From a virus (taxonomy: Duplodnaviria > Heunggongvirae > Uroviricota > Caudoviricetes): DNA of 24,110 nucleotides. This document shows positions 21,001 to 24,000 of the stretch, piece after piece; position 1 is the stretch's first letter; each line of letters begins with the position of its first letter. Made by a program: the position numbers. Location of the stretch: the IMG/VR virus record IMGVR_UViG_2534681831_000037; one strand, written 5' to 3'.

Positions 21001-24000
21001 CTGAAACGCTGGGCGCGCCTTTATTGCCCTGAAGTGATTCTTGGAGTGTACACCCGGGACGAACTGGACGAACCACAGGAAAAAATCATTAATCCGGTTC
21101 AGGAACATAAAAATACATCCGCCTGCCGTGCGGAACGTGCAACAACAATTATTGAGCAGGATGCCGGGGAAAACTGGATCAGTGCTTTCCGTGAACGTAT
21201 TGAGCAGGCACAAAGCACCGGAGAAACAACATCACTTCGCCAGGAAGTGGAAGATCATAAAAATACACTTGGCGCTCTCTACACAGAACTTAAAGGAAAA
21301 GTGGTTCAGCGTCATCACCGTCTCAATGCTATTGCCCGTATTGAGACGATGATAAATGACCTGCCTTCATCAGGTGATCCAGAAGCAGAACAAAAATTTA
21401 TTGCTCTGGAAAATACGCTGAATGCTGCACGACCACATCTGGGAGAATTATATGAGGCGTATAAAACGACACTGACAGATATGAAACCAGAATATATCGG
21501 CTCCTGATATTTACTATGGCGGTGTAGCCTCACCGCCATAACAAAACTTTATTTTATGAGAGAAAAGACAATGCGGTATGAAAAAGTCAAACCATGTCCG
21601 TTTTGTGGTTGTCCATCAGTAACGGTGAAAGCCATTTCAGGATATTACCGCGCAAAGTGTAACGGATGCGAATCCCGAACCGGCTATAGTGGAAGTGAAA
21701 AAGAAGCACTCGAAAGATGGAATAAACGAACTACTGGAAATAATAATGGAGGTGTTCATGTATAAAATTACTGCCACTATTGAAAAGGAAGGTGGCACTC
21801 CTACTAACTGGACAAGATATTCAAAATCTAAATTAACGAAATCAGAATGCGAAAAAATGCTCTCTGGGAAAAAAGAAGCAAGCGTGTCCAGAGAGCAGAA
21901 AGTAAAGCTGATAAATTTTAATTGCGAGAAACTTCTGTCCTCGTGAGTTGCATTATATACAAATTAGAACTTCATAGCTGATTATTAAAAATCAACCACA
22001 CCCGCCAGTATTCTGTATATTTACTGGCGGTCATATCGTAAGAGGTATGGCAATGAATCTTGTGACACTCAAAACGTGGGGAAAACTCAGATATCCAGAT
22101 AACCCACCATCAATATCAACGCTGAGACGATGGGCAAGGAATGGAAACATTTATCCTGCACCTGAACTACACGGGAGGAGTTACAGGGTGGTTCCAGAGG
22201 CTTTCTATATCAACCCGAATAAGGTTGATACCGATATAACACACCATCAGCCTAATGGGCGACAAGGGAGAGACAGTCCGTTAATGGAGAAGTTAAAACA
22301 TGCAGCGGAAAAAATACGATCCCAATTTGCCTAAAAACTTAACATATCGAAGGAGGGACAAAGCATATTACTGGCGCAACCCTCTGACGAAAGAAGAATT
22401 TACACTAGGTAAAATTTCAAGAAGAGATGCAGTAGCGCAGGCAATTGAAGCAAATCATTATATATACAAAAACTACTCTCCTGCTGCCTTAATTGAAAAG
22501 CTTAAAGGGTTCGACTCATTTACTATGGCAGACTGGATTGAACGTTACAAAACGATTCTTATAAGGAGAAAAGTGTCCAGAAATACTTATAAAATTCGGG
22601 TAAATCAACTGGAGACAATAAAAGAAAAATTGGGAGAGATTTTACTGACAGAAATAACCACTCGCCATATTGCCGAGTTTCTTGATTTGTGGATTGAAGG
22701 AGGGAAAAACACAATGGCAGGATCAATGCGTTCTGTGTTGTCTGATATGTTTCGCGAGGCCATTGTTGAAGGACGTATATCTCAAAATCCAGTAACGCCA
22801 ACAAGAGCACCGAAAATAGTAGTTACAAGAGAACGACTGAAACTAAAGACATACAACTGCATCAGGGAGGCAGCAGATCAACTTCCGGCATGGTTCCCAT
22901 TAGCTATGGATTTAGCCCTTGTAACAGGACAACGTCGCGAAGACATAACGAATATGCGGTTCAGTGATATTTATGATGATCGTCTCCACATCAGGCAAAT
23001 TAAGACAGGAATGATGATTGCTATCCCCCTGTCACTCAGCCTTCCTGTCGCTGGTCTACGGCTTGGTACAGTAGTTGAACGGTGCCGCCTGGTAAGCCGG
23101 GGAGATTATCTAATCAGTGCCGGGATTAGAAAAAACAGCCCTGACGGCAGCATTCACCCGGACGGCCTGACAAAAAAATTTGTCGCAGCCAGAAAATTAA
23201 CAGGTATCCAGTTCAGTGAAAACCCTCCAACTTTTCACGAGATCAGAAGTCTGGCTGGACGATTGTACAAAGAAACATGTGGAGAAGAATTTGCTCAGCG
23301 TCTACTTGGCCACACATCGGAGAAGACAACAAAAATGTATCTTGATGAGAGAGAAAAAACGTACTTACTGCTCTGATTTTAACGTAAATGGATTGTTAAA
23401 TGTATTTTGGTTGTGATATAACCAAAAAAGACCGGAATACAGAAATTCGAGTAAATTTCGGGGAATTTCGGGGGGACGTTTGCAACTAATTGATTTTAAA
23501 TACAATTAAAAAAAGACCGAATACGATTCCTGTATTCGGTCCAGGGAAATGGCTCTTGGGAGAGAGCCGTGCGCTAAAAGTTGGCATTAATGCAGGCTTA
23601 GTTGCCTTGCCCTTTAAGAATAGATGACGACGCCAGGTTTTCCAGTTTGCGTGCAAAATGGTCAATAAAAAGCGTGGTGGTCATCAGCTGAAATGTTAAA
23701 AACCGCCCGTTCTGGTGAAAGAACTGAGGCGGTTTTTTTATTGGAAATCAAAAGGCTATTTTAGGTAATTAACAGAGTTTTTCAGCTCGTTCTATAAACG
23801 GTGCCAGACTCATTTTTTCGCCGGGATTGTTAGGATCATCAATCTGAATCACCGAAATGGGTTGGGCTTTAGTCTTCCCACTGGCAACTTCCTTTTGTGC
23901 GATATCGTTTAAAGGATACTGCACGAGGGTACTTGGGTTAATGACATACAAAGCATTATCCGGTCTGCAAGTCAGCATCACCTCTTCGCGATTAAACGCC

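Follow-up and report, generated by a model that had tools for sequence, protein, structure and literature searches.

Attachment site of a lambdoid prophage at the sdsR (ryeB) terminator of Escherichia coli O111:H8, with predicted arm-type integrase sites and a conserved core-like box

Background

The closest described counterpart of the locus considered here is that of Salmonella phage PhiW104, whose attachment (att) site is the last 23 bp of the small RNA (sRNA) gene ryeB according to PMC7380047, which cites Balbontin 2008; the same text reports that PhiW104 lysogeny lowers ryeA expression and raises that of ryeB in Salmonella. PMC3603311 likewise counts the 3' end of ryeB among the sRNA targets of integration (Balbontin, Figueroa-Bossi, Casadesus & Bossi 2008, J Bacteriol 190:4075) and cites Williams 2002 for integration into tRNA anticodon stem-loops. 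In Yersinia enterocolitica BT 1A, the ail prophage vB_Yen_24-YE00064 has a 27-bp att site beside a YebY-family gene, the sRNA being unnamed (PMC12653942, 2025). Here we describe a site of this kind in IMG/VR record IMGVR_UViG_2534681831_000037, a 24,110-nucleotide stretch of tailed-phage DNA (Caudoviricetes; hereafter the window, to which all positions refer), where an integrase gene, int, is followed by the sRNA gene sdsR (ryeB).

The P' arm of lambda carries three tandem arm sites (P'1–P'3), an integration host factor (IHF) site and the core. Like lambda and HK022, the window encodes a heterobivalent integrase (Int, 39–41% identical to theirs) with an arm-binding domain, plus an excisionase (Xis). 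As in lambda, int lies beside the P' arm, three predicted arm sites ~10–11 bp apart are followed by an IHF-type site before the core, and further arm sites are predicted on the other arm. The locus differs from lambda in its target (an sRNA terminator hairpin versus the intergenic gal-bio site), in the arm-site sequence, which reads AATTTCG plus a lineage-specific tail, and in one more, core-like box that lies beyond the three arm sites and for which we know of no equivalent in lambda.

With PhiW104, to which it is likened by published description, the prophage shares the target, namely the final ~23 bp of ryeB, which lie within ryeA (the block that attP and the host site have in common here is AAAAAAAGACCGAATACGATTCC(T)), and the predicted outcome that the 5' part of ryeA is replaced while ryeB is kept; Salmonella loci at the same site carry an Int 72–74% identical to that of the window. 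The host, however, is E. coli O111:H8, and the prophage carries nleC. As for tRNA anticodon stem-loops, the likeness consists in a crossover that would fall in a 7-nt loop with a symmetric stem and in an element that supplies a replacement 3' end and so restores the RNA gene. In contrast, the hairpin is here the Rho-independent terminator of an Hfq-type sRNA, and the same DNA encodes the antisense RNA RyeA, which stays unrestored. The site of vB_Yen_24-YE00064 is probably the same sdsR terminator that is used by Yersinia members of the Int family described below. The basic picture is thus already published and the att site is of the ordinary lambda type; the family-wide arm architecture, the covariation between DNA and protein and the distal box are incremental additions, with the conserved box the one unexplained feature. 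No description of these three was found in the accessible literature on ryeB-site phages, and in the literature searched Bobay 2013 alone was found to name ryeB/sdsR as a site of E. coli prophages.

Integration site and prophage ends

Judged from sequence, positions 23377–23541 most plausibly represent the int-proximal (P') arm and the core of the attR site that bounds a lambdoid prophage of ~53 kb in E. coli O111:H8. We put the probability of this explanation at roughly 85%, a single joint figure that covers the att site, the arm sites and the effects on the host together. The features on which it turns are the following.

22300–23376, plus strand: int, lambda-type heterobivalent tyrosine integrase, 358 aa (open reading frame, Pfam and structure alignment)
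23508–23607, minus strand: sdsR (ryeB) sRNA gene, intact (Rfam RF00111 SdsR_RyeB, full length)
23523–23533, no strand assigned: exchange segment ACGATTCCTGT, made up of the 7-nt loop GATTCCT (23525–23531) and two bp on each side
23769–24110, minus strand: yebY, host gene flanking the site (open reading frame and synteny)

The Rfam SdsR_RyeB match scores 118.1 bits, with the gathering score at 38, and spans model positions 1–100 of 100 (23607 to 23508, minus strand). The gene has a folding z-score of −4.1, and its context comprises yebY on the adjacent side, pphA at the other prophage end and a SraC_RyeA match on the opposite strand. The identity given in the preliminary description, SdsR/RyeB beside yebY, is thus borne out by Rfam and by synteny, and the distance of about 130 bp given there between int and the sRNA measures 131 bp (int end 23376, SdsR 3' end 23508). 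Its perfect 10-bp hairpin with U7 at 23508–23541 also holds: the arms 23515–23524 and 23532–23541 are 10 nt long and 100% complementary around a 7-nt loop, the A7 at 23508–23514 is U7 in SdsR RNA, and a scan for terminators counts 11 pairs, with TTTTTTT after them.

Strain 8B of E. coli O111:H8 matches the window with 100% identity, and strains 95NR1 and 95JB1 do so with 99.9%. From 23507 onward the window is ~98% identical to K-12, and this rightward part is matched in 5426/5426 complete E. coli genomes, while the int side is carried by only 228 of them. The uninterrupted pphA–yebY site is found in 5191 of the 5426 genomes, so that ~4% (235/5426) have it occupied, nearly all by the integrase type of the window. 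That the site is an insertion hotspot, as the preliminary description had it, goes back to Balbontin 2008 as cited in PMC7380047 and PMC3603311. A second core copy, whose absence had been named earlier as refuting the integration reading, adjoins pphA at the opposite prophage end, 53.4 kb away in 8B and 54.7 kb in 95NR1. Together with the empty K-12 site, against which both ends were compared and which yields attB, it confirms integration into the 3' end of the sRNA gene with duplication of the core. The gene nleC lies at the far end, the O111 prophage being an nleC-carrying lambdoid phage.

Strand exchange was located by comparing the empty K-12 site, the window, the other prophage ends of 95NR1 and 8B, and two contiguous attP sequences.

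attB: ATAAAAAGAGACCGAAC-ACGATTCCTGT-ATTCGGTCC, context ...GACCGAACACGATTCCTGTATTCGG... (K-12)
attR: TTAAAAAAAGACCGAAT-ACGATTCCTGT-ATTCGGTCC, context ...GACCGAATACGATTCCTGTATTCGG... (window)
attL: ATAAAAAGAGACCGAAC-ACGATTCCTGT-TTTCGTCAAC, context ...GACCGAACACGATTCCTGTTTTCGTC... (95NR1; confirmed in 8B)

The contiguous attP, present in phage record PP818812 and in an IMG/VR locus (L029), consists of the left part of attR and the right part of attL. Exchange took place inside ACGATTCCTGT, because this is the sole stretch with a phage/host difference on both sides in attB, attP, attL and attR. The 11 bp thus mapped by sequence comparison contain the 7-nt loop, which is flanked on both sides by the 10-bp inverted repeat, and the loop GATTCCT is probably the overlap region. 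Under the favoured explanation, the 10-bp stem halves (consensus GACCGAAnAC) would serve as inverted core-type sites, and a lambda-type integrase would recombine attP with the terminator hairpin of sdsR (ryeB), most probably exchanging strands across GATTCCT.

Three observations concern individual att sequences. The entry PP818812.1 (44770–47508) is deposited as Actinobacillus phage vB_Apl-pPE4 with host A. pleuropneumoniae and encodes an Int 98% identical to that of the window; this host label looks doubtful, the attP core being an enterobacterial sdsR terminator. Aberrant attR cores occur in Shigella flexneri SFBU1023 (AAAAAAAGACCAACATGATTCC...; L078) and E. coli ECMA0423 (AAAAAAAGAACCGAACACG...; L079), where the SdsR terminator may be weakened or altered, or the assemblies may be in error. 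In L029, a CssrB Rfam match (152 bits; 3005–3187, minus strand) lies on the P-arm side of attP, ~280–460 bp from the core.

Integrase and excisionase

The integrase matches the Pfam families PF09003 (arm-DNA-binding; 28.1 bits versus a cutoff of 22), PF22022 and PF00589. It aligns end to end with the lambda Int structures 1Z1B and 5J0N (E = 1.5e-72; 1Z1B over residues 8–353), and R212, K235, H313, R316, H338 and Y347 are invariant among 16 family members. The excisionase gene overlaps its start.

22047–22334, plus strand: xis (excisionase), 95 aa, overlapping the int start (Pfam PF07825 Exc)

Xis scores 52 bits against the PF07825 cutoff of 23, and the protein is annotated as an excisionase in 95NR1.

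Conservation of the architecture across Enterobacterales

Relatives of the integrase were gathered from viral contigs and from one genome per species. SdsR starts 80–140 bp past the int stop codon in 53/66 genome loci, with Int identities of 47–94%, in Escherichia, Salmonella, Citrobacter, Enterobacter, Buttiauxella, Serratia, Yersinia, Rahnella, Rouxiella, Brenneria, Pantoea, Erwinia and Mixta. Rfam finds SdsR in all 11 divergent loci tested and in none of 7 attP-like loci. Across ~60 loci (Int 47–100% identical) the order 3' of int is constant, namely a box AAGACCGAATAY, three TTCG units, an IHF-like site and the core. The spacer of ~35 bp that holds the IHF-like site is otherwise unalignable and is followed by the constant block AAAAAAAGACCGAATACGATTCCT.

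Five loci in Yersinia, Serratia and Buttiauxella (L094, L095, L120, L133 and L136) have int followed by no more than the first 24–31 nt of sdsR, beyond which the DNA is phage-like and contains TTCG repeats; such attP-like junctions suggest tandem or nested elements at the same site. Paired loci ~40–55 kb apart were seen in Serratia montpellierensis (L086/L095) and S. aquatilis (L110/L120).

Arm-type repeats

The arm between int and the core contains two of these elements in the following positions.

23443–23473, plus strand: three tandem arm-type Int sites (predicted) AAATTCGAGT, AATTTCGGGG, AATTTCGGGG, with TTCG at 23446, 23457 and 23467
23483–23495, minus strand: IHF-like site AATCAATTAGTTG (consensus WATCAANNNNTTR), in an H'-like position from arm sites to core

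Tandem repeats had been described at 23454–23473, and AATTTCGGGG is indeed exact at 23454–23463 and 23464–23473; the array, however, has a third, degenerate unit, AAATTCGAG at 23443–23451, directly upstream, which gives TTCG spacings of 11 and 10 bp. A perfect 10-nt tandem arises in 2 of 5000 shuffles of 23377–23760 (0.04%). Counting AATTTCGGGG over the entire window with at most one mismatch gives 3 matches versus 2.3 expected, and enrichment was therefore dropped as an argument; the tandem arrangement and its conservation in the family are what is informative. The three-unit array with TTCG spacings of 11 and then 10 bp recurs in 44 of 56 unique arms, and 2–3 TTCG units lie on the P arm at ~+125 to +165, where in one locus (L133) the tail GGACA is the same as on its P' arm. 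On both arms the units differ in sequence from the core-type sites.

The tails of the units are lineage-specific (CGGGG, CGAG, CGGAC, CGTG or CGATA), and at least two units share an identical tail in 47/56 arms. The tail class tracks residue 20 of the Int N-terminal domain (window numbering), which is R in 8/8 CGGAC lineages, Y in 6/7 CGTG lineages, G, D or E in CGAG lineages, and D in two of the three CGGGG lineages with K in the third. Two Serratia integrases (L089 and L091) differ at 32 of 358 residues, four of these being consecutive at 19–22, and here the tail switches from CGGAC to CGAGT. Residues 19–22 align with N20–Y23 of lambda Int, in its arm-binding domain; we take this lambda patch to lie in the beta-hairpin of that domain. 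Integrase pairs that share a tail are more alike in the N-domain, whichever bin of C-terminal identity they fall into, but such pairs are not independent, so that reliance is placed on the residue-level pattern instead.

These data support the assignment of the repeats as arm-type integrase sites, a role that had been proposed for them from the window alone and to which family-wide conservation and covariation with the arm-binding domain also point. A different protein (Xis, a repressor or a host factor) could bind the TTCG repeats, or they could act at the RNA level, for example at the 3' end of int mRNA or in termination of SdsR read-through, given that they lie within the int 3' untranslated region, where transcription reading through SdsR would pass (PMC6610125). 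We regard such a role as improbable. The tail covaries with a four-residue patch of the Int arm-binding domain itself, the number, spacing and IHF-like neighbour of the units match lambda P'1–P'3, and similar units stand on the other arm. The RNA-level variant was rejected for the duplicate and repeat region (23415–23480), of which both strands fold no better than shuffled sequences (z = −0.25 and −0.06). As arm-type sites, the two AATTTCGGGG repeats would be two of the three units read by the Int N-terminal domain, and the IHF-like site would bend the arm between arm sites and core, as in the lambda P' arm.

Distal core-like box

The remaining element of the arm lies distal to the repeats.

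23424–23440, no strand assigned: distal core-like box AAAAAAGACCG(G)AATAC, a partial duplicate of the phage-side core half

It had been reported as a recurrence of the first 17 nt of the terminator region with one insertion. The duplicate does begin at 23424, but it comprises 16 identical nt plus the insertion: AAAAAAGACCG at 23424–23434 is an exact copy of 23509–23519, and after an inserted G (23435) the AATAC at 23436–23440 repeats 23520–23524. Exact direct repeats of at least 11 nt are found in 110 of 5000 shuffles of 23377–23760 (2.2%), so that by itself the duplicate is only modestly beyond chance. Judged by its position and sequence conservation across genera, the duplicate is nevertheless real. 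The box, written AAGACCGAATAY / AAGACCGAATAT, reaches 11–12/12 matching positions in 36/59 loci and is more conserved than the neighbouring arm sites; its distance to the core A-run is 78–80 bp in 48/59 loci, 67–70 bp in arms that lack one repeat unit and 88 bp in arms with an additional one. Its sequence is that of a core half-site, the four core half-sites reading GACCGAATAC, GACGAAAAC, GACCGAACAC and GACCGAATAC, and in one lineage (L098) the box has the same A-to-G change as the core of that lineage.

The preliminary description took this local duplicate for a core duplication made by integration, a claim that had to be given up. That the duplicate and the repeats are scars of the present integration, or remnant att sites of an earlier resident element, has next to no probability left. 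The position of the duplicate between int and the junction would suit such an origin, and serial integrations at tRNA or sRNA hotspots leave tandem 3'-end fragments. The same sequence is, however, present in the unintegrated contiguous attP of both PP818812 and L029, which refutes integration as its source, and no lineage of the Int family, whatever its genus, lacks it. The duplicate is thus a conserved element of the P' arm.

As for its function, we prefer to see in the box an additional site to which the core-binding part of Int, or another protein of the intasome, would bind. That it is a functional fifth core-type site, or a site coupling int expression to att occupancy, is put forward tentatively; if true, lambda-type attP sites would gain a class of element so far undescribed in them. 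An origin of the Int-family arm region by duplication of the sdsR terminator may be recorded in the box as well. No better than a possibility of the same order is that the box is a non-functional relic in which an additional, ancient copy of the 3' end of sdsR has persisted beside int, be it a duplicated attP core or the product of an old tandem or aberrant recombination. Such a relic would account for a similarity that extends to the A-run (the U-tract of the sRNA), for which there is no obvious reason if Int reads the box. It would also fit a box that, in many lineages, touches the stop codon of int or runs into it (e.g., ctgTAAAAGACCG and gttTAGACAGG) and is degenerate in the most distant ones, and a P arm on which a counterpart was looked for and not found. 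On the other hand, a neutral remnant would be expected to decay at an Int divergence of 57–75%, whereas 36/59 loci keep their 11–12/12 match beside an unalignable spacer and at fixed distances to repeats and core, and the change shared by box and core in L098 also speaks for a constrained sequence. The extra-site reading therefore stays the preferred one.

A candidate mirror copy of the other hairpin half, ATTCCTGTATTG at ~+178 of the E. coli-type P arm, matches at 12/17 positions (shuffle p ~0.04–0.06); it was taken as chance, being absent in pPE4 and in all other lineages. In another record, IMGVR_UViG_2728369554_000022 (L023, ~2620–2650), the 85 bp between box and core are missing (...gatataaccAAAAAAGACCGAATACGATTCC...) through recombination within the 11-bp direct repeat AAAAAAGACCG. 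SdsR is intact there, and the three arm sites and the IHF-like site are lost, so that this prophage should be locked in.

Predicted consequences for SdsR, RyeA and pphA

The host side of the junction adds the following features.

23508–23522, minus strand: SdsR 3' end supplied by the phage, comprising the U7 tail and most of the descending stem (attR/attB/attL comparison)
23523–23740, plus strand: ryeA (sraC), 3' part (Rfam RF00101 at 23504–23648, 179 bits)
23698–23744, no strand assigned: RyeA terminator hairpin AAAAACCGCC / GGCGGTTTTT plus T run (inverted repeat), 3' of yebY, other strand
23479–23506, plus strand: weak promoter-like match within phage DNA, directed towards the ryeA remnant (TTTGCA, 16-nt spacer, TACAAT)

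In E. coli, RyeA is ~270 nt long with 3' ends at +261 to +270, its promoter is of the sigma-70 type and lies beyond the sdsR terminator, towards pphA, and its transcription disturbs sdsR; in K-12, pphA is transcribed via read-through from the sdsR promoter (all PMC6610125). The published RyeA promoter, 5' end and length were mapped onto locus L001, which places the RyeA 3' ends at 23698–23744.

The E. coli native terminator and the phage copy differ at two positions: the SdsR tail reads UUUUUUU in the lysogen versus UCUUUUU in K-12, and the stem has a U-A pair where K-12 has U.G. Under the favoured explanation, attP would bring its own copy of the last ~15–23 nt of sdsR, by which SdsR is rebuilt with a fully Watson-Crick paired stem and an unbroken U7 tail. 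RyeA would fare otherwise: its gene would be separated from the promoter and the first ~55–60 nt, which stay at attL beside pphA, 53 kb away, and a promoterless remnant would stay at attR. The sdsR promoter and pphA would likewise end up 53 kb apart.

Two further ideas were discarded. A phage promoter substituting for that of ryeA has as its sole candidate the match at 23479–23506, which is at chance level (9/12 positions, a score that 0.9 sites in the region would reach by chance) and is not kept in other lineages. A stronger terminator as the contribution of the phage was rejected as well, the stem energy being the same as in K-12 and the difference being limited to the U-tract.

Other features of the prophage

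A RalR/RalA type I toxin-antitoxin pair lies at 21556–21942 (Rfam RalA, 220 bits, 21942 to 21764) and adjoins a recE-like gene (17294–20443) and recT (20455–21507), an early region resembling that of Rac. Further prophage RNAs recognised by Rfam (window 1200–1815, 3767–3967 and 6136–6308) are AgvB (anti-GcvB), STnc100, three tRNAs, isrK with C4 antisense RNA, and sok of a hok/sok module.

Discussion

Several points weigh against the favoured explanation or limit its reach. The binding of Int and IHF is predicted at the level of sequence, and the exchange is resolved only to 11 bp (23523–23533). In one attR (IMGVR_UViG_2690316318_000021, L059; ...ACGATTCCTGTTTTCGGTCC) a phage-type T stands one base to the right of this interval, which could reflect a different crossover, the outcome of mismatch repair or a host polymorphism. 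A perfect IHF consensus WATCAANNNNTTR is found in 18/58 unique spacers versus 0.4 expected from shuffles, and these 18 are all the spacers that have one. In lineages with 47–54% Int identity the box is degenerate (GACAGGATAT, GACTGAGTAT) with the core unchanged, which weakens the argument that the same Int domain reads both. Predicted terminator stability equals −15.8 kcal/mol in both K-12 and the lysogen and thus does not establish a functional difference in SdsR, and the effects on expression are projected from findings in Salmonella and in promoter mutants of K-12.

Regarding the family, a single group of integrases hits the same sRNA terminator across Enterobacterales, and its natural arm-site switches, matched by a four-residue patch of Int, form a comparative data set on arm-site specificity. 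Regarding the host, the prophage alters a regulatory locus and not a protein gene: the RpoS-dependent SdsR would be kept, the promoter of its antisense antagonist RyeA would be removed, and pphA would be parted from the sdsR promoter. The balance between SdsR and RyeA should consequently be altered in ~4% of complete E. coli genomes, including the enterohaemorrhagic O111 strains 8B, 95NR1 and 95JB1.

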